From a virus: DNA of 64,000 bases. Location: positions 1-64,000 of the IMG/VR virus record IMGVR_UViG_3300013102_000032; one strand, written 5' to 3'. Below are positions 27,058 through 63,445 of the stretch, piece by piece (position 1 is the stretch's first letter; the number at the start of each line of letters is the position of its first letter). The notes under the pieces are model-generated. The model worked only from the letters and a program-made list of their open reading frames with translations. It did not search any database and was not told where the DNA came from. The position numbers were made by a program, and so were the translations under genes.

Positions 27058-27293
27058 TAATCCGTCTCTCCTTCTTCGTACTCTATAGTGAAGCTTTCTC
27101 CTTTTTTACCTGCCTCCCAAGCCATACGTAATATCTCTGGAATGTCGTAGCAGTCTGAGAAGTTCTCTGACAGAGTATTATCTTCTGGAAATTCAGAGTT
27201 ATGCACGCTGAATTTAGTTGCATCGTTAATAGTAATTTCTAATACCTCATGCAAACCATTGCAACTGTTCTCTCTTAATACTGTTACTCTCAT
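27057..27293 (-). CDS. Hypothetical protein
   Basis: ORF with RBS GGAGG between thyA and folA. Confidence 0.6.
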   Translation of the reverse strand: MRVTVLRENSCNGLHEVLEITINDATKFSVHNSEFPEDNTLSENFSDCYDIPEILRMAWEAGKKGESFTIEYEEGETD

Positions 27294-27311
27294 ATCTGTT
27301 TCCTCCTGTTG

Positions 27312-28166
27312 TTAAATTCCTAGTTCAAATTTCAATTGTGGAATACTAGGCTTATAGTCAATTAATTCGAAGTCATCTACGGTTATTTCATAAAAGTTAG
27401 TGCCGTCTGGTACATTCAACTTAAAAGTAGTTTGCATGTCAGAAGGCGTTCTTTTAATTAACTCTTTAGCTTGTTCAAGATGTCTTGAATATACATGAAG
27501 ATTTTGTACAAAGTGAGAAAACACTCCTACTTGATATCCACAATGTTTTGCTACCATCATCATAAATGCTACATATTGCATTTTATTAATGTGACCTGCT
27601 ACCAAATAGTCAGAAGATCGTTGAATCAAAGTCATGTCAAGAAACATAATTCCATTCACTTTTCTAACAGAGAATAAAGTAAGAAAAGCACATGGTAGCA
27701 ATCCGTCTGTTTCACTAAAGTTATCTTCTTGCCATAATGATATAATATGTCGTCTGCTATATGGATCTTTTACAAGGTTAGTTAGCAACTTGTTCATTAA
27801 GTCATATCTATCAACAGTTGCTCCATATCGAAGACCAATAGTATCGTCCTTTTCCTCACCATCTCCAACTTCCCATTCTCTCCACCACATGATGCCGTAT
27901 TCCCCTTCTAGTCTTGACAGGTTGGAAGTTTGGTCTTGATAAATCCATCTAATCTCGTTGATGCCGTTTTTGATAGCAATCTTTCTTAAGCTAGTTAGAG
28001 GCATTTCACCTTTGCTTAAATCATATTTCTCAAACACTTGCGTTATGTATACTGAATGTGCAGGCTCTCCGTCACTTTCATATCGAGGGCGTGGGTTTTC
28101 GTCCCAACACCCATTTTCTAAGATTTCTCTGATATTCTCTTTGAATAAATCATCTGCTTTTTTCAT
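27312..28166 (-). CDS. thyA: Thymidylate synthase
   Basis: SRRHI, LLPC, QRSSD and NLHVY motifs. Confidence 0.95.
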   Translation of the reverse strand: MKKADDLFKENIREILENGCWDENPRPRYESDGEPAHSVYITQVFEKYDLSKGEMPLTSLRKIAIKNGINEIRWIYQDQTSNLSRLEGEYGIMWWREWEVGDGEEKDDTIGLRYGATVDRYDLMNKLLTNLVKDPYSRRHIISLWQEDNFSETDGLLPCAFLTLFSVRKVNGIMFLDMTLIQRSSDYLVAGHINKMQYVAFMMMVAKHCGYQVGVFSHFVQNLHVYSRHLEQAKELIKRTPSDMQTTFKLNVPDGTNFYEITVDDFELIDYKPSIPQLKFELGI

Positions 28167-29732: not shown

Positions 29733-29763
29733 AACATCAAATCCTCTCGTTTAATATATACTA

Positions 29764-29792
29764 AGTATATCATTATTTTTTATGTTTGTCAA
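29764..29792 (-). promoter_or_regulatory. Sigma-A promoter
   Basis: TTGACA-17-TATACT with ATAATG. Confidence 0.72.
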
Positions 29793-29845
29793 CACTTTTT
29801 AAAAATTAAACACTTTATATTTTTCTATAAAGTGTTTAATAGTAA

Positions 29846-30151
29846 TTACTTGAAATGAATTTTAACTTCTTCGATAATGCTAAACTCTAACTCTTCTGTT
29901 TTTCGCTCTAATCGTTTTCCGATTAAGAATACGTCAATCAAAGCCCAGATTCCAAGACCTCCAAGAGTTAGAAGTTGTCCTATGCCAACTCCAACATCGC
30001 CTAAGTAGAATCGATGTCCTCCAAATATTCCTAAAAACCACCAAAGCAGATACATTACAACTTTGTTCTTCTGTTTCTTTTCTAGTTCACTCTGCACAAT
30101 AGATAATTGCTCAGAAGACAGTTGTCTTTTTAAGAAAATATTATGACTCAT
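29846..30151 (-). CDS. TM2-domain membrane protein
   Basis: YLLWWFLGIFGGHRFYLG...TLGGLGIWALID. Confidence 0.88.
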   Translation of the reverse strand: MSHNIFLKRQLSSEQLSIVQSELEKKQKNKVVMYLLWWFLGIFGGHRFYLGDVGVGIGQLLTLGGLGIWALIDVFLIGKRLERKTEELEFSIIEEVKIHFK

Positions 30152-30192
30152 AATAAAGACCTCGTTTCTATATGTTTTTTTACTACATTAAT

Positions 30193-30221
30193 AGAATATC
30201 ATAATCTTTATCTTTTGTCAA
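30193..30221 (-). promoter_or_regulatory. Sigma-A promoter
   Basis: TTGACA-17-TATTCT with TGn. Confidence 0.65.
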
Positions 30222-30224
30222 CTA

Positions 30225-30458
30225 TTATTTAATCTTTTTACCATCTTTAAATCGTTGGATGTTGCTAGGTTTTTCTAGGGTAGCCATATGTTGTACAATC
30301 TTTACTTTAAGCAACATTAACTCATCGGTTTCTTTGTCTTTATTAATATAAAGACTAGGGTGACGGTCTTTCATCTTATAGTTTAATGAAATGCTACCGT
30401 CAATTAAGTCTCTGAGAGTCTCTAGTTCATAAAATGTAAAACTGTTTAAGTCTATCAT
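30225..30458 (-). CDS. Hypothetical protein (probable start MIDLNSF)
   Basis: RBS GAGGTG upstream of the internal ATG. Confidence 0.55.
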   Translation of the reverse strand: MIDLNSFTFYELETLRDLIDGSISLNYKMKDRHPSLYINKDKETDELMLLKVKIVQHMATLEKPSNIQRFKDGKKIK

Positions 30459-30477
30459 GTATCCACCTCTTATGATA

Positions 30478-31989
30478 TTATCCGTGTAGGATTTGTCGAA
30501 TCTCAGCAAGCGATTGGTCACGCTTTAACTCACCATCTTCAAATACTGTTTCAAGAAGATTAACAAACGATTTCTCCAATTTTGCTTCTGATTCTTTAGT
30601 AAGACCATCTTGGAAGACAATATTAGCACCTGTAGTCTTGGTGACAAATACTCGCCCACGCTGACTACGCTTAGTGCCATCATCAGTCTTAGGGTCTTTA
30701 AACAGTAATTTCTCTTCGCCATTTACCTGTGTCCATGTAGCTTTGATCGCCTGTCCCCAAGTATCTCTAGTTACGTATTGGTAAGTATAACTTCCGATAC
30801 CTAGTACAATATTGGTTGATGCAAATCCTTTAGCTTCTAATCTACTCATAATTGTTTCAGCACGCTCTAGAGTAATAGAATCTCCATAGATTGCACCAAT
30901 ATGAGGGTCTAGTAATTTATATCCTTTATCAGTGATTATACCACCAAAGATATCCCACAATGCTTCAATCAAACCTTTTCTTTCTAATTCAGTTTCAGCA
31001 TTTGGACTACCGCAAATGATATCCTCTGGTGTTCCACTATCTGGTCGAATAACAATTCGTCCATCACGATTCATAATTTCATTTTTAAGTCGTGGAAGGG
31101 TTTCTCCGATTACTTTCCAGAAGTCATAAGTATCGGATACGATAGATAAGAATCCGCTTGGCACTCTATTTAAAAGATGTTTATAAGCATCATACTCATC
31201 TCGCTCGCCATCCGCAAGAGTTAATGAAGACATGATAGAATGCTCTGTAGCAACAATACTAACGCCTACAATTTCTTTCTCAACATCTGCATTGTAATAG
31301 TTTTCAAGATAAGAAATAGAAGGAATGCTATCAGTACCATAAGATGATAATAAGTGACCTGCTCCACTAGACATTGCAGACTCTAAAGAAGACATTCCAC
31401 GCATACTGAAATCATGTGCTTGAAACTCTACTCCATCTGTATTACCAACTGTTTTCATAGCATACTCATTTAATATTTTACGATATTGATATGCAGTAGT
31501 GGCAGATGTAATCGGCAACCAAACCTCGGTAGAAATTAAAGTCTCTAAATAGTTTGTAAGCCAGAAAAAGTTATTATGAGTATTTTCGATTGTTAATACA
31601 GGCACTTTGACTGGTGAAAGAGTTCCCTCTTTTAAAGCTTTGAGTCGGATAGGTAAATATCCTAAATCATGCAATTCAGCAATATGAGAAGCATCTGGAT
31701 TCTCTACTCCTAAAGCATACTTGATAATTCGTACATACTCAGCGATCACATCCGCTTTTGGTCTACTAAAGAAGTATTCGTTGAAGTAGTTGATTAAATA
31801 TTTCTTAACGAATCCTTGAATACCAAATACCACAACTTTATTTGCAATTGGGAAGTATTTATTACTTCGTGGTGTTAGTGTACTATAAATTCGTTCTGTT
31901 CCATTGGGGTATAAATCCTTATGTCCGACCTTATAGAAATCGCAGAGTAATGTTGGTGGTACTAAGAATTTTTCTGTTGTTTTTTTCAT
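30478..31989 (-). CDS. Nicotinamide phosphoribosyltransferase-family enzyme (NadV/NAMPT; Namat-like in NARP1)
   Basis: DFYKVGH, HDFSMRG, ATEHS, VSDTYD, IRPDSG, IYGDSIT and KDPKTD motifs. Confidence 0.92.
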   Translation of the reverse strand: MKKTTEKFLVPPTLLCDFYKVGHKDLYPNGTERIYSTLTPRSNKYFPIANKVVVFGIQGFVKKYLINYFNEYFFSRPKADVIAEYVRIIKYALGVENPDASHIAELHDLGYLPIRLKALKEGTLSPVKVPVLTIENTHNNFFWLTNYLETLISTEVWLPITSATTAYQYRKILNEYAMKTVGNTDGVEFQAHDFSMRGMSSLESAMSSGAGHLLSSYGTDSIPSISYLENYYNADVEKEIVGVSIVATEHSIMSSLTLADGERDEYDAYKHLLNRVPSGFLSIVSDTYDFWKVIGETLPRLKNEIMNRDGRIVIRPDSGTPEDIICGSPNAETELERKGLIEALWDIFGGIITDKGYKLLDPHIGAIYGDSITLERAETIMSRLEAKGFASTNIVLGIGSYTYQYVTRDTWGQAIKATWTQVNGEEKLLFKDPKTDDGTKRSQRGRVFVTKTTGANIVFQDGLTKESEAKLEKSFVNLLETVFEDGELKRDQSLAEIRQILHG

Positions 31990-32035
31990 ATTTGTAATCT
32001 CCCTTTTGTTTGTTTTTAGTTTTTATAATTTTATA

Positions 32036-32878
32036 TTATCCGTTTAATACTTCTTCGATATTATAGATTTGTAATTGCTCTTTAAATTTAGCATTCTCCC
32101 AATTTCCTTGCTCTGTTAAAATCGTGTCTGTTGTGAATACTTTATCAACATGGTCAAATAGCTCACCTTTGAAGATACTGTTTTCAGCATGTGCCACTAG
32201 TAAATAGATTTTCTCAAAACCTTCCGCACGTAAGCGTTTAGCACTATGTACAAAAGTTCCTCCATAAGACGATAAATCATCAACAATTATAGCAGTTTTT
32301 CCTTGCTTGTCTTTGTTTCCAATTAAATCTAATCCTTGGATTTCACCTGTTTTAAAATCTCTTACCTTATGACCAATTAAAACATTGTCTGTCTTCATAT
32401 TTTTATACCTCCGTGATGCACCTAAATCTGGAAACATGATATAATCTTTCTCTATATCAAATCCAACCTCTTCCATCACTTTAGGCAATAAGTCAAAGTT
32501 GATAAATTTAGATTCAACGTTATTTAGTAAAGCAGGAGTAACGTCAGAATGAGGTTCAATAACTACGACCTTACTAAAATTCATTTCGTTAATGAAATTA
32601 GACACATACTTTAACGTAAACGGAGATCCCTCTTCACTTCTATCCATTCGACTATAAGGCATGTAATAGATTGTCAGTTTAACTGCATCTATTCCAAAGA
32701 ATGAATCTAGATAATTTTTTACAAACCGTAGTTTAATCAAATCTGAATCGTCTTCGAATTTGAAATGTATCTTTGGAAACATTAGCGGAATACCTTTTTC
32801 AATACTGTCATGTACTAATTTTGTTTCTCCGTTTGGAAATTTCTCGAATACAACTTCTTTACCGTTTACTTTAATCAT
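32036..32878 (-). CDS. PRPP-synthetase-family enzyme (Adps-like in NARP1)
   Basis: FPNGE, YMPYSRMDR, PDLGA, IVDDLSSYGGTF. Confidence 0.9.
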   Translation of the reverse strand: MIKVNGKEVVFEKFPNGETKLVHDSIEKGIPLMFPKIHFKFEDDSDLIKLRFVKNYLDSFFGIDAVKLTIYYMPYSRMDRSEEGSPFTLKYVSNFINEMNFSKVVVIEPHSDVTPALLNNVESKFINFDLLPKVMEEVGFDIEKDYIMFPDLGASRRYKNMKTDNVLIGHKVRDFKTGEIQGLDLIGNKDKQGKTAIIVDDLSSYGGTFVHSAKRLRAEGFEKIYLLVAHAENSIFKGELFDHVDKVFTTDTILTEQGNWENAKFKEQLQIYNIEEVLNG

Positions 32879-33101
32879 TTGTCTTACCTCCGTCTTTTAA
32901 TTTATTCCCCACTGATATCAAAGCCCACGATAATAAAACTATAATAATACTACTAGTAATCATCGTTAGTATTAATGGTGTAAGCATTCCTGCAATTGCA
33001 AATATTAAAATTTCTAAAGCATATATAAAAGCTAAAGTTGGATAGAAGTGCTTTGAATTAATGACCTTATAAAGTTTTTTAATAAATTTCATTGTCACCA
33101 T
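32871..33101 (-). CDS. Small membrane protein
   Basis: Two TM helices; first gene of the PRS-NAMPT operon. Confidence 0.55.
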   Translation of the reverse strand: MVTMKFIKKLYKVINSKHFYPTLAFIYALEILIFAIAGMLTPLILTMITSSIIIVLLSWALISVGNKLKDGGKTND

Positions 33102-33119
33102 CTCCTTTTCTATATACTT

Positions 33120-33148
33120 AGTATATCATTATATTTTGTTTTTGTCAA
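33120..33148 (-). promoter_or_regulatory. Sigma-A promoter of the PRS/NAMPT operon
   Basis: TTGACA-17-TATACT with ATAATG. Confidence 0.75.
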
Positions 33149-33152
33149 CAGT

Positions 33153-33617
33153 TTATTTACTTCTTTTAAATAACTTTTTAAACCATGATTGAGATTCTTT
33201 TTCTATCATTTCTTCTACTTCTACTTCCATTCGTTCTTTATGCTCTCGATAAGCTCTCTCCGCAATCTCCTTGCTCTTCTCTGTTTTATCATCTATAATT
33301 CTTTCGATAATATGAGAAGTAGAGTATATGAATAGATTCTCAGTAGTCCTAATACGCTTTGTAATTGTAACATGCTCATCTATTTCATTAATATATATAC
33401 TATCTCCCACTTCCATTATAGGCAGTGTTAATATTCCTTCCCATAACTTTTCTTCTCCTACTATATTGTCATATTCATAGATGCGAGAATCTGCATTATA
33501 ATCATAACAACGATGGTAATTCATGTGTGACATAAAAAACATACCACTATATCTTCCATATTCGTACATCTTCCTTACTTTCATACCATTTATTATTGAA
33601 TTATATGTTTGATTCAT
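33153..33617 (-). CDS. Hypothetical protein
   Basis: ORF with RBS GGAGG. Confidence 0.6.
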   Translation of the reverse strand: MNQTYNSIINGMKVRKMYEYGRYSGMFFMSHMNYHRCYDYNADSRIYEYDNIVGEEKLWEGILTLPIMEVGDSIYINEIDEHVTITKRIRTTENLFIYSTSHIIERIIDDKTEKSKEIAERAYREHKERMEVEVEEMIEKESQSWFKKLFKRSK

Positions 33618-33632
33618 TTTGTTTCCTCCTGT

Positions 33633-33650
33633 ATAAAATTCCTATTTTAT
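33633..33650. repeat. Junction motif ATAAAA-TTCCTA-TTTTAT
   Basis: Immediately upstream of the RBS of 33153..33617. Confidence 0.75.
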
Positions 33651-33692
33651 CAAGTATTCTACATGCTTAAAATCACCTCAAAAGAGATGATT

Positions 33693-34046
33693 TTAATTTT
33701 CGTAAATTACCTGTTTTAGCTTAAACCATATCATACAATCGAAATCTGATAAATAATGAGATTTATCTAGGTCATCTACTATGTATTGTCCATCATTGTT
33801 TTCATATACAAAATATTCTTTTCCGCTTGTTATGTTTACTGGATTACTACAGTTTAGGACAGCTATTAAAATATGATTAGTTTTGTTTCTTTCATATTCT
33901 TCCATTTTCTTTGCCTGCCCAATTATCCAAGACAATAAATCATAATCCTCTGTAGAGAAGTATACTGGACTGTCGAGCGTATAGGCGAATTTAATATAAT
34001 CTAAAAATAATTCGGCATCTTTAATCTTATCGATATTATTCTTCAT
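33693..34046 (-). CDS. Hypothetical protein
   Basis: ORF with its own promoter, RBS and a downstream hairpin (33667-33695). Confidence 0.6.
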   Translation of the reverse strand: MKNNIDKIKDAELFLDYIKFAYTLDSPVYFSTEDYDLLSWIIGQAKKMEEYERNKTNHILIAVLNCSNPVNITSGKEYFVYENNDGQYIVDDLDKSHYLSDFDCMIWFKLKQVIYEN

Positions 34047-34066
34047 AATCTCAACTCCTTATATAC

Positions 34067-34095
34067 ACTATATCATTATTATACTTTCTTGTCAA
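34067..34095 (-). promoter_or_regulatory. Sigma-A promoter
   Basis: TTGACA-17-TATAGT with ATAATG. Confidence 0.7.
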
Positions 34096-34110
34096 CAACC
34101 AAATCATCTC

Positions 34111-34410
34111 CTATTTTATCGGCTTTGTAAAAATAAAATATCCTTTAGTTGAATTATTGCTTGACAAATTTGGATCTGATTCTACGTCTAAGATCTCTAA
34201 GTCGGTATTTTCATTTAAAAACGTCTTATAACTTTTAGGAAAGTCCATATTAGAATCTCCTCGTTCTATATAATAAAGATTACCATCTATCAAGGTAGTG
34301 TATGCGGATATAGAATTTTCACCAACGTTGTCTACATTAGTATACGGTTCGCCTTGACATCCAATTAACATAAATGCAGAAATCATTGTAATTGCTATAA
34401 GTTTTTTCAT
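34111..34410 (-). CDS. Lipoprotein
   Basis: Signal peptide with lipobox MLIG-C. Confidence 0.7.
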   Translation of the reverse strand: MKKLIAITMISAFMLIGCQGEPYTNVDNVGENSISAYTTLIDGNLYYIERGDSNMDFPKSYKTFLNENTDLEILDVESDPNLSSNNSTKGYFIFTKPIK

Positions 34411-34421
34411 CTAGTCATCTC

Positions 34422-34901
34422 CTATTTTAAAAATAGTCTCTTTATTAAATTTAAGTCTTTATTTAATTCGCTTCTAATTCTAGTCAGTCTTCCGCAAAAT
34501 TCACTATTAGTTAATACAGTTTTACTAGGGTCTTTCTTGCCCATTGAATGCGTTAGAGTTGCTTTGCCTGTGGCTAATAGAGCTTTGCAAAACTTATCGT
34601 TCTTAGCCAGTCGATCAAACGCTTTATCTAAGAGTTCTTGATAACGATCACTGTGACGGTCAATTTCTTCGCCCTTCCAGTATAATGTCTGAGTACGATA
34701 CCAATTCTTTTTCTTGCCTTTAAACTTGGCTTGCTTGCCAACCAACGTGCAAACGTGTATTTGCATTTCTGGATTAGAATATTTTAATGATTGCAAAAAA
34801 CCTTCCATTGAAGCACATTGAACTCCATCAATCTCAAAATTATGAGGTGAAAAGTTGCTAAGTGCTGATTCTGGATATCCATTACCGCTACCTATGTCCA
34901 T
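34422..34901 (-). CDS. NADAR-family ADP-ribose hydrolase, T4 gp30.3-like
   Basis: LSNF.PH.F..DG...ASMEGFLQSLK, QTLYWKG, ALLAT, LTHSMG; RBS-supported start MDIGSG. Confidence 0.8.
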   Translation of the reverse strand: MDIGSGNGYPESALSNFSPHNFEIDGVQCASMEGFLQSLKYSNPEMQIHVCTLVGKQAKFKGKKKNWYRTQTLYWKGEEIDRHSDRYQELLDKAFDRLAKNDKFCKALLATGKATLTHSMGKKDPSKTVLTNSEFCGRLTRIRSELNKDLNLIKRLFLK

Positions 34902-34921
34902 ATTTATCTCTCCTTTATAGT

Positions 34922-35230
34922 TCATCCTTTTAATGATTTTAAGAAATCTATGTCATCCTCTATCTTTTTTAACTCTGATTTTTTCAAAGTCAATTCTTCG
35001 TCTAATTTTTTTAATCTATCAAATTCAAGAGTCCATCTCCAAACGTCATTTTTTATATAACGCCTAATCATAACTCCTTTAAGCCATACTTGTAGGTATA
35101 AAACTTTATAAGGTAAATCGATATTAATATTAAAAGCAAACACTTTATCTTGCCCTGCATATAATGTATCTTGCTCTTTTTTGTCTATTTTTGTTCCGAT
35201 TACAACATATGTTTCTTCCATTATTATCAC
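34922..35230 (-). CDS. Hypothetical protein
   Basis: ORF coupled to neighbours. Confidence 0.55.
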   Translation of the reverse strand: MIIMEETYVVIGTKIDKKEQDTLYAGQDKVFAFNINIDLPYKVLYLQVWLKGVMIRRYIKNDVWRWTLEFDRLKKLDEELTLKKSELKKIEDDIDFLKSLKG

Positions 35231-35329
35231 TCACCTTTTATTTTTGTTAAAGATTCTACCTTGCATAAATCCCAATACGTATACAAACACTGAATATAAG
35301 ACGAATACAATCACTGGAAGTGCAACCAT
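35231..35329 (-). CDS. 32-aa hydrophobic membrane peptide (not in ORF track)
   Basis: MVALPVIVFVLYSVFVYVLGFMQGRIFNKNKR; RBS GAGAGGA. Confidence 0.5.
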   Translation of the reverse strand: MVALPVIVFVLYSVFVYVLGFMQGRIFNKNKR

Positions 35330-35365
35330 AAGTTCTTCCTCTCTATGTAATTAGTTTTTATAAAT

Positions 35366-35584
35366 CTATAATCTAGTTAAATCGAAAGGAGTAGCTTCTC
35401 TTTGTGCTATGATAGCAAATAACTCCTGTTCATGACTGTCATTAAGACATTGGTATGTTGCAATACTTTTAACCATCTTCATTCCAAAAACATTTATAAA
35501 TTCTCTTTTGCTATTCCAATAAATGCCTTTATCACCGCATCTAGGACATTTGTTTTCGTTCACACGCCAAACGGTTAAATCCAT
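35366..35584 (-). CDS. Small putative zinc-binding protein
   Basis: CPRC...C...H; RBS GGAGA. Confidence 0.6.
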   Translation of the reverse strand: MDLTVWRVNENKCPRCGDKGIYWNSKREFINVFGMKMVKSIATYQCLNDSHEQELFAIIAQREATPFDLTRL

Positions 35585-35601
35585 TACATCATCTCCAATT
35601 C

Positions 35602-35619
35602 ATAAAATTCAGTTTTTAT
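35602..35619. repeat. Junction motif ATAAAA-TTCAGT-TTTTAT
   Basis: Contains the stop of 35616..35846 and precedes the next RBS. Confidence 0.8.
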
Positions 35620-35846
35620 CTAATTGTCATTCTTTCAATGTGAAAAGGATAAGTACCTTCTGAGTATTCTGCACAAGTTTCACAATCGAAACAATTAACT
35701 TTAAAGCCTAAAGGTTTTAGCTTTTCGTTAATGTAGCTTTTTTCTTCTTCGGTTATGATTCGTTTAATACTTCCTTCAACAGTACAATTACTCTTTTCAC
35801 TCATAGCTTCATCTAGAAAGCCTTGCAAAGCACTATCTAATTTCAT
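35616..35846 (-). CDS. Hypothetical cassette protein
   Basis: 76 aa ORF bounded by motifs at 35602 and 35862. Confidence 0.6.
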   Translation of the reverse strand: MKLDSALQGFLDEAMSEKSNCTVEGSIKRIITEEEKSYINEKLKPLGFKVNCFDCETCAEYSEGTYPFHIERMTIR

Positions 35847-35861
35847 ATGTCCACCCCATTC

Positions 35862-35879
35862 ATAAAATTGAGTTTTTAT
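35862..35879. repeat. Junction motif ATAAAA-TTGAGT-TTTTAT
   Basis: Contains the stop of 35876..36022. Confidence 0.8.
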
Positions 35880-36022
35880 ACATTTGTGTCTTTTATTCTA
35901 ATTTTCAATATATCCAATGTATCTATAACTCCTTGTGCGAATCCTTCTCCCCATGCACCATCATAAGGGTCAACATCAATTAATTCTAGCAACTGTTTTC
36001 GTTGTTCTTCTGTAATCTGCAT
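35876..36022 (-). CDS. Hypothetical cassette protein (48 aa, not in ORF track)
   Basis: MQITEEQRKQLLELIDVDPYDGAWGEGFAQGVIDTLDILKIRIKDTNV; RBS AGGGTG. Confidence 0.65.
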   Translation of the reverse strand: MQITEEQRKQLLELIDVDPYDGAWGEGFAQGVIDTLDILKIRIKDTNV

Positions 36023-36036
36023 ATTATCACCCTTTC

Positions 36037-36054
36037 ATAAAAGTAAACTTTTAT
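36037..36054. repeat. Junction motif ATAAAA-GTAAAC-TTTTAT
   Basis: Contains the stop of 36051..36200. Confidence 0.8.
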
Positions 36055-36200
36055 CTATCATAATCCTTTACGATTACTTCTGCTTCATCAAGCCATTCAC
36101 TTATATCGCCATATGAATCGTGAGGAATATCGCCATGCGACCTTAAATCATCGACTTCATTTCTAATATTGTTGATTAATTTTAATAATTCACCTATCAT
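36051..36200 (-). CDS. Hypothetical cassette protein (49 aa, not in ORF track)
   Basis: MIGELLKLINNIRNEVDDLRSHGDIPHDSYGDISEWLDEAEVIVKDYDR; RBS GGAGGGTG. Confidence 0.65.
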   Translation of the reverse strand: MIGELLKLINNIRNEVDDLRSHGDIPHDSYGDISEWLDEAEVIVKDYDR

Positions 36201-36213
36201 ATTGTCACCCTCC

Positions 36214-36231
36214 ATAAAAGTAAATTTTTAT
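36214..36231. repeat. Junction motif ATAAAA-GTAAAT-TTTTAT
   Basis: Abuts the stop of 36232..36462 and the next RBS. Confidence 0.8.
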
Positions 36232-36462
36232 CTATTGTTTCCATCTGTCTAATTCGTCTTGATAGTTAGAAATTACAGTATCGAAGCCATTCGACAATTT
36301 ACCTATCACATCTTTACGATGAATATCTTCTGTCCAAATACACTTAGGAAACCAATACTTCCTAGGTTTGTACAACTTATATTTGTACATTGGCGTTATA
36401 GAATCTCCCCAAAATGACACCTTGATTATAAACCCTTTATATTCTTCTTTCATTGTCATCAC
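36232..36462 (-). CDS. Hypothetical cassette protein
   Basis: ORF bounded by motifs at 36214 and 36469. Confidence 0.6.
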   Translation of the reverse strand: MMTMKEEYKGFIIKVSFWGDSITPMYKYKLYKPRKYWFPKCIWTEDIHRKDVIGKLSNGFDTVISNYQDELDRWKQ

Positions 36463-36468
36463 TCCTGT

Positions 36469-36486
36469 TTAAAATTAAGATTTTAT
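36469..36486. repeat. Junction motif TTAAAA-TTAAGA-TTTTAT
   Basis: Overlaps the stop of the HD hydrolase gene. Confidence 0.75.
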
Positions 36487-37154
36487 CAATGTGCAGGTAC
36501 GAATTTATTACGGTTTAACTCTTCTATTTCCGCTTTCAATCTAGCTACTTCTTCATAATGCTCTTTGATTTCCCATAAGTGAGGTTCAATTGTAGTCTTT
36601 GCTGAATTGAAATATCCTGCATATCGTGGATATCTAATTCTTCCTTCTTTGAATAATGGGATGAAATGCTTTTCAGTTTCCATAGCTTGTCTAAGCTTTT
36701 TCTCTGGCGTAGCATCTCGTAGCGTTCCGAAATTGTGCTTTCTGTCAGAAGTCTTCAATAATAAAGCTCTTACATCTAATAAAATAGGCTGTAGATAAGC
36801 TACCATATTCTCATCTATCTTATAGTCAATTCCTTCTTTTTTAGTAACCAAGTCCACCATAACTGCAACATTGCTATTAAATTTATCTTCAATCATTCGA
36901 TTAGTTACTCCGTAGATATCTTCTGGTGCATCGTGCAATAACATTCCAGTAAGAATATCTTGGTTTCTTATTCCATGATTGAATAAATCTTGCGTGGTGG
37001 CTACGAGATGATAGTAATAGTGAGTGCCGTTATGCCTTGAGAATCCTTTTTCCGTACACATCTCTTCTATCATCCAATCCAAAGCTCTTAGTGAATCATC
37101 ATACCCTAAATTAGATAATGACCTTTCTAAATGTCTAACTAAACTTTCACTCAT
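36486..37154 (-). CDS. Small alarmone hydrolase (RelA/SpoT HD domain, Mesh1-like)
   Basis: R..G..Y..H, LLHDAPED, V..VTK, K.SDRKHN..TL, AMET...FIPL. Confidence 0.85.
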   Translation of the reverse strand: MSESLVRHLERSLSNLGYDDSLRALDWMIEEMCTEKGFSRHNGTHYYYHLVATTQDLFNHGIRNQDILTGMLLHDAPEDIYGVTNRMIEDKFNSNVAVMVDLVTKKEGIDYKIDENMVAYLQPILLDVRALLLKTSDRKHNFGTLRDATPEKKLRQAMETEKHFIPLFKEGRIRYPRYAGYFNSAKTTIEPHLWEIKEHYEEVARLKAEIEELNRNKFVPAH

Positions 37155-37184
37155 ATTCTCGTCCTCCCCATTTGCTTATATCTT

Positions 37185-37213
37185 ATTATATCATTATTAA
37201 AAGCTTTTGTCAA
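37185..37213 (-). promoter_or_regulatory. Sigma-A promoter driving the HD hydrolase and the cassette array
   Basis: TTGACA-17-TATAAT with ATAATG. Confidence 0.78.
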
Positions 37214-37219
37214 CAGTTT

Positions 37220-37777
37220 TTAAATCTTTTCTAACATTTTAACATCTAATGTCTTTGGATGTAGATGGGTTATATTTCTCTGTCTTTTGACCGCATATTT
37301 TACAGTTCCCCAAGTGCCTCCATCTTTACCTTCATCCCATACTGCTATAACAAGCTTAGCATTGTCAACCATCCATTTGTCTCTCACATGCATACACCAA
37401 GGGGTATAAGGCTCGTCTGAAACATAATATACTAAGTCTGCTTGTTTTATTACTTTATGATAAACCTCTATATCGTTTTTATTCCATCTAGAATATTGCT
37501 CTGCACATGGAATGGCACAGACTAGCTTTATGTGAGGGTATTTTTCTTTTAACTTAAGTACAATCTGTGCAGACCAAATATCAACACCAATAGCCATGCC
37601 AGTTATAAACGTATCAATTCCTCTTCTTTCGATCTTATCAATGATTGTCTCTTTTAACTTCATAAGCATCTTAACATTTTCTGGATGGCGATAATCATAA
37701 CTAGGAAATTTATCTGGTCTATGTCCAGTGAAGCACAGAGTTTTATCGAAATTCATATCATAAACTGTATGTAGCAT
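37220..37777 (-). CDS. SLOG-superfamily YspA/DUF1273 protein
   Basis: CFTGHRP, FITGMAIGVDIW, RDKWMVDN, GGTWGTV.YA. Confidence 0.88.
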   Translation of the reverse strand: MLHTVYDMNFDKTLCFTGHRPDKFPSYDYRHPENVKMLMKLKETIIDKIERRGIDTFITGMAIGVDIWSAQIVLKLKEKYPHIKLVCAIPCAEQYSRWNKNDIEVYHKVIKQADLVYYVSDEPYTPWCMHVRDKWMVDNAKLVIAVWDEGKDGGTWGTVKYAVKRQRNITHLHPKTLDVKMLEKI

Positions 37778-37793
37778 ATTATTCCTCCTATAG

Positions 37794-37826
37794 AAAATGG
37801 TAGTTCAATTATGAACTACCATTTTT
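37794..37826. terminator. Hairpin terminator
   Basis: aaaatggtagttca-at-tatgaactaccatttt inverted repeat. Confidence 0.65.
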
Positions 37827-37831
37827 GTTGT

Positions 37832-38218
37832 TTATAATTTTTCCTTTACAATGACATTATCTTTAATGCTATATACTTGCATTCTGTCTCCGCCTAGATT
37901 GAATAATCCATTGTTATCACTCTGTAGCAAGGTTGGCTTTATTACTTTTGCAACTAGATCTTCTCCATCTTTCATTGATAGTATAGATTTATCTATCAGA
38001 ATGTGAGTGGCGTAAAGAGCCTTTGCACCCTTTCCAATTGGATTAGAAGTAACTGTACTACCGTCTTTAAACGAAGTATAACCAATGGTATCTTGATTAA
38101 TCTCTCTTCCTTCATCTAATAAATCATTGACTACTCTATTAAACATAACTTGTCTAGAGACTGTATTTTGTAAGCTTCCATTATCTAAATAAAATATAGA
38201 CACTCTTTTTACGCTCAT
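37832..38218 (-). CDS. Hypothetical protein (probable start MSVKRV)
   Basis: RBS AAGGAGAG upstream. Confidence 0.55.
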   Translation of the reverse strand: MSVKRVSIFYLDNGSLQNTVSRQVMFNRVVNDLLDEGREINQDTIGYTSFKDGSTVTSNPIGKGAKALYATHILIDKSILSMKDGEDLVAKVIKPTLLQSDNNGLFNLGGDRMQVYSIKDNVIVKEKL

Positions 38219-38231
38219 TCTTATCTCTCCT

Positions 38232-39536
38232 TTATTCATAATTAATATCTTCAATACCCTTGTCTGTACGTATTGATTTGAAAACAGGAAATCTCAATGA
38301 AGGTAATTCTGTCTTTTCGTCTTTACTTTCCTCGAAGAATTGGACTTCAATAATCTTGCCAACAATTTCGCTTGGATTTGCAATAAATTGTCTACGTTGC
38401 TCCAGTGTAAAGCCAGAGCCAACGCCCACGGAATTGCCTTTGTACTCAACATTTACACGACCTAGCAACCCTTTGAATTGTCCGTCAATAGCTTCTTCTA
38501 TATCTAGTACAAGTAAATCAGCAGTCTGCATAGTTTTTACTTTTTGCAAACCAACAATACGCTTATTCTCATAATATCCATTAGCAGTATTGACCATCAG
38601 ACCTTCGTATCCATCTTTCTCAACTTGCTCTAACAGTGTTGGAATTACGGATTTATCTGTTCCTACGTATAACACAGGGAGAATGCTGATATTTTTAGTT
38701 GATTGAATAAATTTAGATATCATTGTATCTAAATTATATCTTCTCTCTTCGTAAGTCTTTTCTGATTTTCCATTTTGAAATTCTGAAATAGATAGATAGT
38801 CAAAGATATGAAATTTCAAACCCTTTTTATCTCCATCTTTTCTTACGACTTTTTGCGTAGCTCTGAATAATTCATCAGATGGAAGGTTGTTTATATTGAA
38901 TAATAGCAACTCACCGTCATAAACACCATTTGGTAAATTGGCAAATTGCTCTTCTAACTCTACCATCCCCTCAACAGGCTGTCCTTTGCGACTGAAAAAC
39001 TTAACAACACTATTGTCTACAATTGCAACACATCTGTTTCCATCTAGTTTGAGAGTAACGTAGAATTTTCCAGTAACTTTGTCAGATTTCTTAGCGAATG
39101 ATTCAGCTAACATTACTGCAAAACTAGGGATAGTTCCTTTGCCATAAACTTTATTGACCGTCTTTTCTGAGATGCCTAGTTTTAAATCTTTTGTTACAAA
39201 CTTCTTTACAAATGTTTGCAGTTCTTCGCTTTCAAGACCTTCTATGTATCGCTGAATCAATGCTATATCTTCATCCCTACCAGTGTTACTTACAGAAAGA
39301 TGTTCAATAATATCGTCCAAACTTCGGATAGGATGATATTTTTCACTAATACCGCTAACATCTTTATTCATTTTCTTAGTTGAAATACCTGTGACTATGT
39401 ATGGATTTAGCAAGAAGATAAGAGCTTCACGGAAATCCATGTCGCCCTTATTATTCTTAAGTATCTGTTCTTTTGCTAGTTTTCCGCTCTGATTCTCTAA
39501 GCTAGTCATTATATTATATATATTATGTATATTCAT
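38232..39536 (-). CDS. lig: ATP-dependent DNA ligase
   Basis: KLDGNR, DGEL, EGLMV, GVGSGF, SLRFPVF. Confidence 0.93.
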   Translation of the reverse strand: MNIHNIYNIMTSLENQSGKLAKEQILKNNKGDMDFREALIFLLNPYIVTGISTKKMNKDVSGISEKYHPIRSLDDIIEHLSVSNTGRDEDIALIQRYIEGLESEELQTFVKKFVTKDLKLGISEKTVNKVYGKGTIPSFAVMLAESFAKKSDKVTGKFYVTLKLDGNRCVAIVDNSVVKFFSRKGQPVEGMVELEEQFANLPNGVYDGELLLFNINNLPSDELFRATQKVVRKDGDKKGLKFHIFDYLSISEFQNGKSEKTYEERRYNLDTMISKFIQSTKNISILPVLYVGTDKSVIPTLLEQVEKDGYEGLMVNTANGYYENKRIVGLQKVKTMQTADLLVLDIEEAIDGQFKGLLGRVNVEYKGNSVGVGSGFTLEQRRQFIANPSEIVGKIIEVQFFEESKDEKTELPSLRFPVFKSIRTDKGIEDINYE

Positions 39537-40126
39537 TATACCGAAGCTCCTTTTTTCGTTGGGCGAGTAATCAACTCATCTACTAAGCCTAATTCCAATG
39601 CTTCTTCTCCTGTAAAAAACCAATCTATCTTTCTATCTCTTAGTTCTAATAGCTTTCTTTTCTTAATATCTGTTTTATCAACTAGGAAATTATCTAACAT
39701 TTCTTGAAGCCTAACACTCTCTTCAACGTGTTGAATTTCATCCATTAGCTTCCCATGATGCCCACTAGTTAATTGATGTTGCATAAACGTAGCCAATTTG
39801 TGTGCAAATCTCTTATGACCTGCGGAGAAAATAGTTAAACCCATGCTCATAGCTTTGCCATAACAATATGTATGTATTGGAGTTTCGCTAGTCTCAATCA
39901 TGCCTACTAGAGCCATTCCGCTATAGCAACTTCCACCAAAAGAATCTATAATTATTTTAATTGGTTGACGAATATATCCAACAGTAATTTTGCTTTGTTT
40001 GTCATCGTAGTCATTGAATTTACGAATACCTATAATCACATCTTTTATTGACTCTGCTGAAATTTCTTTATTTAATAGAAACTCTCTATCTGGAAGCATG
40101 TTTGGATTAATGTTGTTGTTTGTCAT
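39536..40126 (-). CDS. clpP: ClpP-like protease, paralogue 2
   Basis: IDSFGG, AMSMG, FMQHQ, EEALELGLVD. Confidence 0.85.
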   Translation of the reverse strand: MTNNNINPNMLPDREFLLNKEISAESIKDVIIGIRKFNDYDDKQSKITVGYIRQPIKIIIDSFGGSCYSGMALVGMIETSETPIHTYCYGKAMSMGLTIFSAGHKRFAHKLATFMQHQLTSGHHGKLMDEIQHVEESVRLQEMLDNFLVDKTDIKKRKLLELRDRKIDWFFTGEEALELGLVDELITRPTKKGASV

Positions 40127-40146
40127 GATTAATCTCTCCTTTTTCT

Positions 40147-41145
40147 TTAGTGAGACAGAGTATCTGCCTCACGTAGAAATTCTAATTTATTGTAGAAATC
40201 TTCTCCTACACGTTCTTTTAGCTTTTCTCTATTTGCATTGTCGTCTAATAGATACATATGGAATTGGATAAGTATAGATACATCTTCGATGAATCTATCT
40301 TCAAAGTTCATTTGCTTCAAGAAGTTTACGGCAATTTGAGATCCAACACACTCATGACCAATGAATTGTGCATGTCTCATTTCTTCGCCCTTTCGACTAA
40401 TGAAAGTCTTGCAAAACTCCTTGCCGATATCATGTAGCAATGCAGTCCAAAGCATTAACTCTTTATCTTCGCCATCGTAGTTATCTAAAACATGTTTATA
40501 GACATAATAAATATGTCGGCTCACCGATAAGGTGTGCCATTTTGAATCTTGAGACAAATCGTAGATTTTAAAGAAGTCTTCAAAGTAGGAGGCTAGAAAC
40601 TTCATCAAATCATATCCTTCTCTACCTAGTAAAACCGCTACTCGAATCGCATCTGTAAACTGTTTTGGCAAATCGGTTTCAATAATCTCGTCTGTGTATT
40701 CGAAGATGATATTATCCCAACCCTCAGACTTAATTGGAATTTGCATAGTTTTATACATTCGCTCGATAACATCAACTGGCACTTTTCTATCTCGACCATC
40801 ATTACGAATAAGAATCTCTTCGTATGGAGTTGCAACGTAGATAGCAATCTTTTTTACTGACTTTGGAAGTTGCTTAAGCAATCCTTGTCTTTTCTTTCGT
40901 GAGATATTGGTAGCATCATAGATTACACTTCTACCATTCTTCAAAGATTCCTTAGTTCTAGTAGCCATAGTTGCAAATACTTCACCATTGATATCTTGTC
41001 TATTGACATCTCCTGTTAGCTCTTCTCTAATTGCATCGGAAGAGATGTAGTCGATATCATCTCTCCCTTTCATTAGATCTTCTGCAACAGTAGATTTACC
41101 ACTTCCTGCAATTCCTACTAGCATAATAAATTTTGATTCATTCAT
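40147..41145 (-). CDS. Polynucleotide kinase (AAA_33) fused to an HD domain
   Basis: GIAGSGKST, YDATN, LLHDIGK...HE..G. Confidence 0.85.
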   Translation of the reverse strand: MNESKFIMLVGIAGSGKSTVAEDLMKGRDDIDYISSDAIREELTGDVNRQDINGEVFATMATRTKESLKNGRSVIYDATNISRKKRQGLLKQLPKSVKKIAIYVATPYEEILIRNDGRDRKVPVDVIERMYKTMQIPIKSEGWDNIIFEYTDEIIETDLPKQFTDAIRVAVLLGREGYDLMKFLASYFEDFFKIYDLSQDSKWHTLSVSRHIYYVYKHVLDNYDGEDKELMLWTALLHDIGKEFCKTFISRKGEEMRHAQFIGHECVGSQIAVNFLKQMNFEDRFIEDVSILIQFHMYLLDDNANREKLKERVGEDFYNKLEFLREADTLSH

Positions 41146-41155
41146 GTTATCACTC

Positions 41156-42427
41156 CTATTCTGCAGATTCAGCTTCTTCCATATCTAAAACATCGTCAGA
41201 TTTAATAATTCCTTCTAGTACTTTGAAGTTGAAGTTCTTATGTTTCAAAGCTGTGAATTTTTCTTTTCCTTCGATTCGCACAATGATACCTTCACGTAAA
41301 TGTGTTTTGCCAATAGGGTCAACACCATCTTCATACTTAGCAACTCGTTCTAATAAATCGTTATTTGTTGTATATGTGAATCTGTCTAACTCTGGTGTAT
41401 ATTTAACTCCCATTTGCTCACAACGAATTTTTACTAAATCTGTCGGATACTCTACAACATATCCATCTTCGTTAGTCATAGTCATTCGGTAAGCATAGAT
41501 GTCACTTTGTCCAACCGCACAACCATATGTGAATCGAGTTTTATCGCCATATTGTTTAATAAACTCTTTATCTCTAGTTTTCTTATTATCACATTCTGGC
41601 ATAATCAAACCGCCATCTTCTGTATATCCTACTACTTCATAGAAAATAGTTTCGCCTTTTTTCAATTTTCCTTCAAACAAATCGTGCCACTGTTTACGAA
41701 ATTGATTGCCACCATAAAATCCGCCATCAAAGCTCTCAAGATTTACTCTTCGAGTACCTGTGGCTAACTCCCACTTATTCTGTTTAGGTAACTTGATGCC
41801 AACTTTTTTCAACAAATCTCTTAATTTAGATGTCTCTTTTTTAATAGTATTAGTTGTACGCTGAGAAGTACCATGCATTTTTAAAGTAATTACACATTGG
41901 TCGCCTTCTTTAAATCTATTAGTATTGTAAGCTAGTTGTGCAGTATCAATGTGTTGCTCAAACAAAGGATACAAATTCTCTTTCTTTTTAGCATTACCCT
42001 TAGTGCTTACAGTACCACCTTTAGCTTTGCCTTTAGGTACGTATTTCTCACAGATTAAGACACCGTTGATAGTAGAGATATTATCTCCTTCTTTTAACTT
42101 TGTAACATCTGTAAATTTAGAAAGGCTATTTACTGATAAAAATAAACCATCAGATTTTTCTCCACGCAATTTAAGACTAGTAATATGACGCTTTTCTGGA
42201 TCTAAATATCCACCTTCATTACTTCCGCTAATACGTACTAAGTTGTTCTCTGTTGCAAATTCTACACTCAACTTTCCGTCAGTTGGGAAGTACACTCCTA
42301 AATCTCCAACCTTAACATCTAATCCAACGATAACATCGTTCCCAAATAATGTAGCAACTTGTAATCGGTCTGCGTTAGAATGCTTTCTCAATTCTTTAAC
42401 TGTTGTAACATATCCACAATAACTCAT
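41156..42427 (-). CDS. RNA ligase (Rnl2/DRB0094-like) with N-terminal OB domain
   Basis: HSNADRL, LRGEKSDGL, KMHGTS, REGIIVR, ALKHK. Confidence 0.85.
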   Translation of the reverse strand: MSYCGYVTTVKELRKHSNADRLQVATLFGNDVIVGLDVKVGDLGVYFPTDGKLSVEFATENNLVRISGSNEGGYLDPEKRHITSLKLRGEKSDGLFLSVNSLSKFTDVTKLKEGDNISTINGVLICEKYVPKGKAKGGTVSTKGNAKKKENLYPLFEQHIDTAQLAYNTNRFKEGDQCVITLKMHGTSQRTTNTIKKETSKLRDLLKKVGIKLPKQNKWELATGTRRVNLESFDGGFYGGNQFRKQWHDLFEGKLKKGETIFYEVVGYTEDGGLIMPECDNKKTRDKEFIKQYGDKTRFTYGCAVGQSDIYAYRMTMTNEDGYVVEYPTDLVKIRCEQMGVKYTPELDRFTYTTNNDLLERVAKYEDGVDPIGKTHLREGIIVRIEGKEKFTALKHKNFNFKVLEGIIKSDDVLDMEEAESAE

Positions 42428-46424: not shown

Positions 46425-46451
46425 TGTAACATCTCCCTCTCTTATACTACT

Positions 46452-46480: not shown

Positions 46481-46486
46481 GCGTTT

Positions 46487-62853: not shown

Positions 62854-62871
62854 TTAAAATGAGAATTTTAT
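62854..62871. repeat. Junction motif TTAAAA-TGAGAA-TTTTAT
   Basis: Contains the stop of 62868..63128. Confidence 0.78.
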
Positions 62872-63128
62872 TCATCTATTCTTAATTCTAATGCTTGCCT
62901 CCAACAGTTATAACATTGTAAAGATTGTGCTTGCCATCCATGCACATCTTCCTTTTCACACAATCCTTCAAAATCATCAAGTCCAAAGTTCATTGGACAC
63001 CCTGCTAAAATTGATAAGTCACCATTTTTAATATCTTTCTCATTATCTAAACAGTTCTGTAAATGTTCAATATCATGAGTTTTAATAGTCTCGCAATAAT
63101 TTAGAATAACATCTTTTCCTGTTTTCAT
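62868..63128 (-). CDS. Cys-rich hypothetical cassette protein
   Basis: GCP...C...CYNCW; bounded by motifs. Confidence 0.6.
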   Translation of the reverse strand: MKTGKDVILNYCETIKTHDIEHLQNCLDNEKDIKNGDLSILAGCPMNFGLDDFEGLCEKEDVHGWQAQSLQCYNCWRQALELRIDE

Positions 63129-63142
63129 ATCTTCACCCCTTA

Positions 63143-63160
63143 TTAAAATAGAAGTTTTAT
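63143..63160. repeat. Junction motif TTAAAA-TAGAAG-TTTTAT
   Basis: Between the stop at 63165 and the next RBS. Confidence 0.78.
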
Positions 63161-63164
63161 CAAT

Positions 63165-63413
63165 TTATCGTCTTATGTATTCTTGTCTTCCACTAGCGTA
63201 GTATTTTACTTCTTTATACATAGGGTCATCTAGTTTTTCTACTCTCAAAACTATATTATCTTTATGCCTGTCTCTATTAACAATTGCTTGACAAGGGTTC
63301 TCTTTGGTGCAAGTGCATTTTGATTTATTCACATACCCTTGCCCACCTTCTTTTGCATAGCAGAATTTATTTTCTTTTACTATTTTTTGTATCATATCAA
63401 GTATCTCGCTCAT
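63165..63413 (-). CDS. Hypothetical cassette protein
   Basis: ORF bounded by motifs; Cys cluster. Confidence 0.6.
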   Translation of the reverse strand: MSEILDMIQKIVKENKFCYAKEGGQGYVNKSKCTCTKENPCQAIVNRDRHKDNIVLRVEKLDDPMYKEVKYYASGRQEYIRR

Positions 63414-63427
63414 AGCTTTCCTCCTTT

Positions 63428-63445
63428 ATAAAACTCGCATTTTAT
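63428..63445. repeat. Junction motif ATAAAA-CTCGCA-TTTTAT
   Basis: Contains the stop of the methylase gene. Confidence 0.78.

Follow-up and report, generated by a model that had tools for sequence, protein, structure and literature searches.

Most of the small genes of unknown function in large phages, counter-defence factors among them, lie in the early regions, and beyond the T4 group little is understood of how such regions acquire and shed genes while keeping their operons expressed. T4-type phages carry PeSL (promoter-early stem-loop) elements, which are composites of a promoter and a terminator stem-loop (PMC2839356, PMC4122927). Here we examine a palindrome that recurs at gene junctions of an early operon in viral DNA from IMG/VR (record IMGVR_UViG_3300013102_000032); the stretch analysed, the window, is the first 64 kb of this 72.6-kb record, which is estimated to be ~44% complete. 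The PeSL element appears to be the closest concept to this junction palindrome. As far as the PeSL descriptions go, both are short conserved intergenic motifs amid small variable early open reading frames (ORFs) in plastic regions, and in both, some gene replacements end at the motif. Unlike PeSL elements, the palindrome has neither a sigma-A promoter nor a stable stem, carries a stop codon and abuts a ribosome-binding site; each copy is distinct from the others, copy order is maintained across genera, and no breakpoint excess over other junctions was found.

An initial annotation of this locus had likened it to an integron array. Integron attC sites are imperfect palindromes of 55-140 nt, conserved in structure and bearing a GTTRRRY core. 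The likeness holds for the layout, with one promoter, promoterless and mostly one-gene units bounded by a palindromic site behind each, and turnover of those units. It does not extend to an adjacent integrase, to attI or to attC structure: the sites here measure 18-24 bp and are conserved in sequence, with invariant ATAAAA/TTTTAT arms and no GTTRRRY, covariation or significant fold; their order is fixed across phages; and the same motif also stands between core genes, at terminators and at promoters. The evidence does not support a mechanism of the integron kind. Core sites of Xer/Cre-type tyrosine recombinases consist of inverted arms flanking an asymmetric spacer of 6-8 bp, and the palindrome resembles them in its inverted arms around a 6-bp asymmetric spacer; it differs in numbering tens of copies per genome. 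A further comparison lies in the same phage lineage, where, in the reported peak set, ChAP-seq of the SPbeta master repressor MrpR gives peaks at about 10 promoter regions bearing the element SPBRE (PMC10516654). SPBRE is likewise a repeated element of early regions, and an MrpR homologue is encoded by the Tsamsa-like Bacillus phages, which the account of the group names Tyroviruses after three conserved tyrosine recombinases (PMC9703825). The two elements differ in that SPBRE has, in the SPbeta description, about 10 copies at promoters, against 38 copies of the palindrome at gene junctions in SPbeta.

We consider it somewhat probable that the junction palindrome, an element shared by a lineage, is read by a phage-encoded dimeric protein, and that the slots between its copies are refilled by mosaicism of a general kind. 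The arms are invariant, the flanks symmetric and pairing dispensable, which argues for recognition of the sequence by a protein that would act more likely on DNA than on RNA. The palindrome would then serve expression control at cistron boundaries, as a roadblock, in timing or in translation control, and genes would be replaced through the mosaicism that the early region shows at gene boundaries generally, with no integron-like recombination dedicated to the motif. A whole lineage of large temperate Bacillus phages, the model phage SPbeta included, marks many of its gene boundaries with one palindrome. The slots so bounded are fixed, individually recognizable and free in gene content, which offers a practical handle for finding accessory-gene slots in new genomes, and the palindrome can be tested as a cis element in a genetically tractable host, Bacillus subtilis, with SPbeta or FADO.

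Junctions and slots of the early operon

Protein homology identifies the window as part of the genome of a phage distantly related to the Tsamsa-like "Tyrovirus" Bacillus phages. The HD-domain protein encoded first in the operon is 47-54% identical to homologues in Tsamsa-like phages, the carriers being Bacillus siphoviruses of ~160-170 kb (Tsamsa, vB_BcoS-136, FADO, Thrax1-5, Nate, Sophrita, Chewbecca and others). In the array region, the window shares with Tyroviruses almost only its junctions at the DNA level, and megablast of 35300-37800 against the phage collection returned a single 55-nt match. A protein-pattern scan of IMG/VR using the HD protein gave no match, and an exact 20-mer scan of the same database recovered Tsamsa itself and one other contig, in which no gene start follows the site.

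Positions 37213-35345 on the minus strand form a single early operon (Table 1). The initial annotation had described five motif copies bounding four one-gene intervals behind a single promoter, and this layout is borne out: four exact copies and one with a single mismatch delimit four intervals, each holding one minus-strand ORF with a Shine-Dalgarno sequence, and short opposite-strand ORFs of 34-52 aa occur as well. The 12/12 promoter at 37213-37185 stands alone ahead of the array. In the consensus scan, the best sigma-A matches inside the array reach 10/12 and the next same-strand matches of at least 11/12 lie at 34095 and 33148; promoter-like matches overall are at chance level (50 observed, 56.1 expected). 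ATAAAA-N6-TTTTAT with at most one mismatch occurs 14 times in the window, against a mean of 2.30 and a maximum of 7 in 100 dinucleotide shuffles of the window, none of which reached 14.

Table 1. Coordinates of the operon, its junction palindromes and further copies in the window (operon features in minus-strand order)
Feature	Position	Strand	Basis
Sigma-A type promoter of the operon	37185..37213	-	TTGACA-17-TATAAT, TG extended, 12/12, top match in 30000-42000
HD-domain RelA/SpoT hydrolase-type protein, 222 aa, operon gene 1	36486..37154	-	PF13328 E 1e-10
Junction palindrome, spacer TCTTAA, 3' arm TTTTAA (1 mismatch)	36469..36486	-	pattern match
Small ORF, 74-76 aa, without known family	36232..36462	-	ORF list and family searches
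Junction palindrome, spacer ATTTAC, exact	36214..36231	-	pattern match
Small ORF, 49 aa	36051..36200	-	ORF list and family searches
Junction palindrome, spacer GTTTAC, exact	36037..36054	-	pattern match
Small ORF, 48 aa	35876..36022	-	ORF list and family searches
Junction palindrome, spacer ACTCAA, exact	35862..35879	-	pattern match
Small Cys-rich ORF, 76 aa	35616..35846	-	ORF list
Junction palindrome, spacer ACTGAA, exact	35602..35619	-	pattern match
Small ORF, 72 aa; relative searched, none found	35366..35584	-	ORF list
Degenerate sixth copy ATAAAAACTAATTACAT, behind the 72-aa ORF	35345..35361	-	pattern match
Further motif copy, behind a terminator-like hairpin and ahead of a 154-aa gene; similar to the Tsamsa copy at 48670	33633..33650	-	
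Second run of junction copies (62854, 63143, 63428), extending past the window to 64199-70081 of the record	62854..63445	-	

The spacers of these copies form a series that recurs across phages. The order TCTTAA, xTTTAC, ACTCAA, ACTGAA is kept in seven of them: the window has TCTTAA, ATTTAC, GTTTAC, ACTCAA, ACTGAA; Tsamsa TCTTAA, TTTTAC, ACTCAA, ACTGAA; Thrax4 TCTTAA, TTTTAC, GTTTAC, ACTCAA, ACTGAA; Nate TCTTAA, TTTTAC, ACTCAA; Sophrita TCTTAA, TTTTAC, GTTTAA, GTTTAC, ACTCAA, ACTGAA; vB_BcoS-136 TCTTAA, GTTTAA, TTTTAC, ACTCAA; and FADO TCTTAA, GTTTAC. The TCTTAA copy with the variant 3' arm TTTTAA has its counterpart at the corresponding place in Tsamsa, Thrax4, Nate, Sophrita, vB_BcoS-136 and FADO, the ACTCAA 18-mer of 35862 is identical in all of these except FADO, and a junction of ~40 nt that is 92-97% identical to the one at 36037 is found in phages pW2 and C30-3. 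A second series, TCTTAC then TTTCCC, occurs in the record (67966, 67100) and in Tsamsa, and a third, TTCTAA then TGTTGA, in FADO and vB_BcoS-136. Exact ACTCAA and ACTGAA copies were not found in Chewbecca or MrDarsey. The whole series follows the HD gene in the window and lies ~25 kb from it in Tsamsa.

Among four divergent genomes, 21 pairs of junctions have identical spacers, against 3.0 expected, and none of 5000 shuffles reached 21. A restricted spacer repertoire as the source of this sharing was rejected, as spacers never recur within a genome (0/570 pairs within genomes, 21/1708 across genomes, p 0.004), which argues that sharing across genomes reflects positional orthology. The comparison shows each of these genomes using each spacer variant once. 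It also bears on the similar cores of neighbouring sites, on the plus strand TTCAGT/TTGAGT and GTAAAC/GTAAAT (ACTGAA/ACTCAA and GTTTAC/ATTTAC as oriented), each pair differing by one base, and on the imperfect direct repeat around 36037 and 36214, where 35 of 41 aligned columns agree. Both features had been noted correctly at the outset and were then read as the footprint of a circular cassette crossing over. That reading is not supported: ACTGAA follows ACTCAA already in Tsamsa, Thrax4 and Sophrita, so the likeness of neighbouring cores is old and not the scar of a recent crossover.

The genes between these junctions differ. When the 44 ORFs behind junction copies in seven arrays were compared by blastp at E 1e-3, a threshold applied here to very short proteins, only three pairs matched, two of which link Tsamsa with its close relative Thrax4; among the 21 pairs with a common spacer, homologous ORFs numbered 0 downstream and 0/20 upstream. 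The ORFs that occupy a given slot vary in length from 29 to 152 aa, which argues for gene replacement over divergence. Since the same spacer variants stand in the same order with unrelated ORFs between them, the window array is an orthologous scaffold of fixed junctions with refilled slots, and the comparisons support cassette-like gene turnover on such a scaffold.

Two ORF families can be followed across phages. Relatives of the Cys-rich ORF at 35616-35846 (46-50% identity) in Chewbecca, Skywalker and MrDarsey sit between junctions TGATAC and GGATAA, a slot that in Tsamsa holds a different gene, and this family thus recurs flanked by motifs. Relatives of the ORF at 36232-36462 in FADO and 2S-4 (40.6% identical) stand behind other junction variants, with a full motif copy upstream and only a half copy downstream. 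An invariant gene order among relatives, or the same ORFs elsewhere free of flanking motifs, would count against cassette-like turnover; order and content vary, with unrelated ORFs between the same junctions, and on these alignments neither pattern is clearly seen, the half copies in FADO and 2S-4 coming nearest to the second.

As to what the operon encodes, its first product, previously called an alarmone hydrolase, is an HD_4 protein, which matches RelA/SpoT (spoT_relA) models over their hydrolase part only. Searches of the small array ORFs against Pfam, PHROG and NCBIfam gave no match, a PADLOC search gave only chance-level matches (E 0.001 or weaker, none credible), and their Atlas scores (0.77-0.85) lie under the meaningful level.

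Anatomy and range of the palindrome

As read from aligned copies, the element is a 24-bp sequence-specific palindrome, T-N-G-ATAAAA-N6-TTTTAT-N-N-A, at boundaries between two early-operon cistrons. The conserved unit is longer than initially recognized: the 76 exact copies aligned across four genomes favour T at -3 (68 copies) and A at +3 (66 copies), and the 29 copies with no gene start behind them have the consensus T-N-G-ATAAAA-N6-TTTTAT-C-N-A. Its placement was counted in 68 copies with at most one mismatch from four genomes, oriented by the downstream gene. The upstream cistron's stop is a TAA within the 5' arm in 28 copies and lies 2-3 nt ahead of the arm in 18, with no nearby end in 12. 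Past the 3' arm, A at +3 followed by GG(A/G)G is found in 63 of the 68 and a start codon at 12-18 nt in 52. In Tyroviruses the next gene's Shine-Dalgarno sequence begins 3 nt after the 3' arm; in SPbeta the distance from motif to start codon varies from 18 to 33 nt. The two arms are present jointly or not at all in most cases: behind TTTTA plus Shine-Dalgarno contexts, the 5' arm has no mismatch in 31, one or two in 6 and at least three in 34.

Some details of the array junctions are recorded here in their own right. In four of the five (window 35602-36231) the 3' arm runs into an ATG as TTTTATG. This opens a mini-ORF of 3-6 codons in three junctions, closing before or across the true start; at 36214 the ATG is in frame with the 49-aa ORF. 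Stops occur in two or three frames at 35602, at 36037 and, through TGA/TAA, at 36469.

Several lines of evidence show an element conserved, across the copies compared, by its sequence and not by base pairing. Covariation is absent among flank and spacer columns (shuffle p 0.24-0.98 in the 76 copies, 0.12-1.0 in the junction and standalone classes), and most one-mismatch variants disrupt the outer pair with no compensating change. Folded as RNA, the five array junctions lie at shuffle level (z +0.51, -0.26, -1.07, -0.79 and +1.58), and arm-to-arm pairing is absent from the minimum-energy fold in all five. A stable RNA hairpin was rejected for the array given this shuffle-level folding and lack of covariation. 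An intrinsic terminator (G+C-rich stem plus T run) was likewise set aside, as the sole terminator-like site in 30000-42000 is not at any motif copy.

Not all copies adjoin ribosome-binding sites. One lies between convergent genes (window 19404), others stand behind terminator-like hairpins (window 33633, Tsamsa 48670), and others wrap the -35 hexamer of TTGACA/TTGAAA-17-TATAAT promoters in FADO, Tsamsa and vB_BcoS-136, where they lie ~1.1-1.2 kb upstream of the gp50/YomM-like recombinase gene. We note further that window 33618-33692 and Tsamsa 48639-48702 share a composite of a terminator-like hairpin, ~20 nt, a motif copy (spacers TAGGAA and TAGAGA) and then ACAGGAGG; it directly follows the HD-hydrolase pair in Tsamsa, and in the window ~2.8 kb of other genes intervene. 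Behind each of the standalone copies at FADO 988, 9066 and 42212 (minus strand) comes a further element common to all three, TGAT(A/C)TAAATAAT(N)ATATA; it may represent a different class of promoter. A one-mismatch match at window 22684-22701, inside a 1124-aa ORF, is probably due to chance and not a functional copy.

The palindrome extends beyond the Tyroviruses. Exact copies number 13 in the 72.6-kb record, 14 in vB_BcoS-136, 30 in FADO, 20 in Tsamsa, 13 in Chewbecca and 18 in MrDarsey; SPbeta has 13 exact copies, its full set of 38 being reached when one mismatch is allowed. The reversed pattern, used as a control, gave no exact match in any record and 4 matches in SPbeta at up to one mismatch. 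Most SPbeta copies likewise occupy gene junctions, within the yoq-yot early region, and Tsamsa and SPbeta have 24 ORFs in common, including homologues of YopR, YopP and YomM, three proteins of recombinase fold. A generic feature of AT-rich Bacillus phages was rejected, as SPO1, SPP1, Bastille and phi105 have no copy and Lactococcus phage 949 has 2. Because it is found in both Tyroviruses and SPbeta and is absent from those four Bacillus phages, the junction element looks ancestral to the Tyrovirus and SPbeta lineage. The SPBc2 record labels one copy (116406-116431) plainly as a stem-loop. No description of the palindrome was found in the Tsamsa paper, the Tyrovirus paper, the SPbeta review or literature searches, the original 1999 SPbeta genome paper being outside this scope.

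Breakpoints, candidate proteins and competing explanations

Replacement end points coincide with the palindrome in individual cases. Between Tsamsa and Thrax4, the segment bounded by the TCTTAA and ACTCAA junctions has been replaced (322 vs 1566 bp), homology stopping 6 nt past one core and resuming exactly where the other begins. Over the whole genome, 15 of 84 breakpoints are no more than 15 nt away from a core, and cores make up ~1% of the DNA. Motif junctions are nevertheless no more prone to breakpoints than other junctions, with no excess found. In a first pairwise test a breakpoint fell in 8/14 motif junctions and 37/94 others (p 0.25), and in four Tsamsavirus genomes in 8/14, 10/18, 3/6 and 8/12 motif junctions against 54/106, 50/102, 43/87 and 44/87 others (p 0.36-1.0); the power of these tests is low, and the four genomes do not count as independent samples. 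Nearly every early-region breakpoint (48 of 50) coincides with some gene junction, whether or not it carries the motif. Together with the lack of a motif excess, this argues that gene-by-gene mosaicism belongs to the early region as a whole. One DNA run, the probable source, contains the stretch, and no RNA run is listed for it; in the contigs of that run, the array appears without variants or joints, although contigs alone could not reveal joints or circles. We also observed a clean one-gene indel between Tsamsa (48695-48903) and Thrax4: Tsamsa gp111, 'toxin' in the record, is absent from Thrax4, where the same motif copy and Shine-Dalgarno sequence lead directly into the next gene. The motif lies on one side only of this indel.

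These data bear on whether the junctions act as PeSL-like linkers, that is, as short homology patches at which co-infecting relatives would swap intervening genes by homologous recombination, thereby keeping junction and spacer uniform. We regard this as doubtful, though several points favour it: junctions are 85-97% identical over 36-50 nt amid otherwise unrelated DNA, the Tsamsa/Thrax4 replacement ends 0-6 nt from two cores, 15 of 84 breakpoints lie close to cores that cover only ~1% of the DNA, one ORF family occupies different slots in different phages, and the PeSL elements of T4-type phages offer a precedent in their published description (PMC4122927). The breakpoint counts speak against it, since junctions of any kind attract nearly all breakpoints and motif junctions have no excess, as does the one-sided motif at the gp111 indel.

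A dedicated recombinase acting on the palindromes, in integron-like fashion or by heterospecific cassette exchange, would be a phage tyrosine recombinase binding the 9-bp arms and exchanging strands across the 6-bp spacer; we hold this to be highly improbable. Its appeal lies in the Xer/Cre-type architecture of inverted arms around an asymmetric spacer. Tyroviruses and SPbeta, moreover, have in common three proteins of tyrosine-recombinase fold, conserved recombinases in the Tyrovirus account (PMC9703825). The spacers never repeat inside one genome, are conserved from one genome to another and stay in order, a pattern that heterospecific sites would show, and a motif-wrapped -35 promoter lies upstream of the YomM/gp50-like gene in all three complete genomes examined. 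Against this, uniqueness within a genome is also predicted by chance (about 1 identical pair expected), motif junctions are not enriched in breakpoints, and an ORF family has moved between slots with different spacers, which strict spacer matching would forbid. A search for Phage_integrase (PF00589) gave no match in the record (~44% complete), and in relatives the arrays are remote from recombinase-like genes, which in Tsamsa lie at 35.0, 130.2 and 155.2 kb, the array at 21.9-22.5 kb. No motif copy was found directly behind any recombinase gene in Tsamsa, FADO or vB_BcoS-136, and for gp50 the Tyrovirus paper, in its treatment of that protein, puts forward a different inverted repeat (PMC9703825). 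That published putative attP was itself considered as an instance of the motif and rejected: a scan for perfect arms of 9-11 bp around a 6-bp spacer came up empty there in all three genomes. A specific form of this explanation, that the palindromes are heterospecific targets of an orphan YomM/gp50-like or YopP-like protein through which co-infecting phages swap the gene of one slot, is in our estimate just as improbable; if true, slot swapping that neither scrambles nor deletes the operon would be a natural counterpart of recombinase-mediated cassette exchange.

One of the three recombinase-fold proteins, moreover, is a homologue of the non-catalytic repressor MrpR. The Tsamsa gp94-like 'recombinase' is clearly homologous to MrpR/YopR (PDB 8a0a, E 3.8e-21; 9rd5, E 3.2e-23) and matches the Pfam integrase model weakly, across its first half only; this Tyrovirus 'tyrosine recombinase' may be a lysogeny repressor rather than an integrase. 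Its genes lie at 35000-36013 in Tsamsa, 27012-28037 in FADO and about 159415-160428 in vB_BcoS-136, each with a motif copy ~145-175 nt upstream. An identity of the palindrome with the MrpR operator was rejected, as SPBRE is another sequence: the element recovered from the yorE, yosX and yorZ promoters reads TAGACA...ATGTATATAAT, a promoter element unlike the palindrome, its 15-bp sequence being taken from what these three promoters share and not from the published logo.

The motif might also be read as a set of internal promoters, T-T-G-A-TAAAAT serving as an extended -10 so that each small gene has a weak or phage-activated promoter of its own. Copies after terminator-like hairpins (window 33633, Tsamsa 48670) precede a gene with no other promoter before it, and the TTG flank is frequent in standalone copies. 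Yet the last T of the supposed -10, which should be invariant, is present in only 34 of the 68 oriented copies, A or G taking its place in four of the five copies of the array; the conserved 3' arm would have no role; transcription starting ~7 nt downstream would leave nearly no leader before the Shine-Dalgarno sequence; and no phage sigma factor of the Sigma70_r2 type was found in four genomes. We judge this very unlikely.

Punctuation at the RNA level, in which the transcribed palindrome together with a protein would link the termination of a cistron with initiation at the following one, or mark a processing site, seems distinctly unlikely, although part of the anatomy suits it. The stop lies in or beside the 5' arm in 46/68 copies, the Shine-Dalgarno spacing is fixed, and one SPbeta copy lies in the yosX 5' leader between promoter and Shine-Dalgarno sequence. 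The shuffle-level folding energy of the array junctions, the absence of covariation, the mostly uncompensated outer-pair mismatches and the variable start-codon distance in SPbeta speak against it.

Several points weigh against recognition of the palindrome by a dimeric protein on DNA, with slots refilled by general mosaicism, which we nevertheless favour. The best-known candidate protein, MrpR, is probably not the binder because its peaks carry SPBRE, a different sequence. A plain dimer operator would be expected to leave its spacer free to vary; the 6-nt spacers are instead kept 6/6 identical across phages whose shared genes are ~64% identical in DNA. This conservation leaves room for the recombination-related explanations, doubtful for homology patches and highly improbable for site-specific exchange. 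The fixed 3-nt distance to the Shine-Dalgarno sequence and the stop in the arm suit a translation role at the RNA level equally well, at 36037 and 36214 the 3' arm can pair with Shine-Dalgarno purines in the RNA fold, an alternative pairing that RNA-level punctuation could use, and most standalone copies still stand at an ORF's end and would therefore be transcribed too. Finally, the ORFs called unrelated could, with lower probability, be extremely divergent relatives, which would weaken the case for gene replacement.

Two minor observations concern the surroundings of the array. Its neighbours include a Phage_30_3 family protein (PF08010, E 4.5e-56; window 34422-34925) and a YpsA/SLOG family protein (PF06908, E 6.6e-30; window 37220-37777), the latter with an SPbeta homologue, yoqJ. 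Stretches of 30-55 nt that match many places in Tsamsa, FADO and vB_BcoS-136 at 80-97% occur at window 33111-33158, 37170-37224, 25839-25875, 29755-29798, 46443-46481 and 61602-61642; the two that were checked, 33111-33158 and 37170-37224, cover the sigma-A promoters at 33148 and 37213, and such stretches over promoters may be the counterpart of the SPBRE promoter element.

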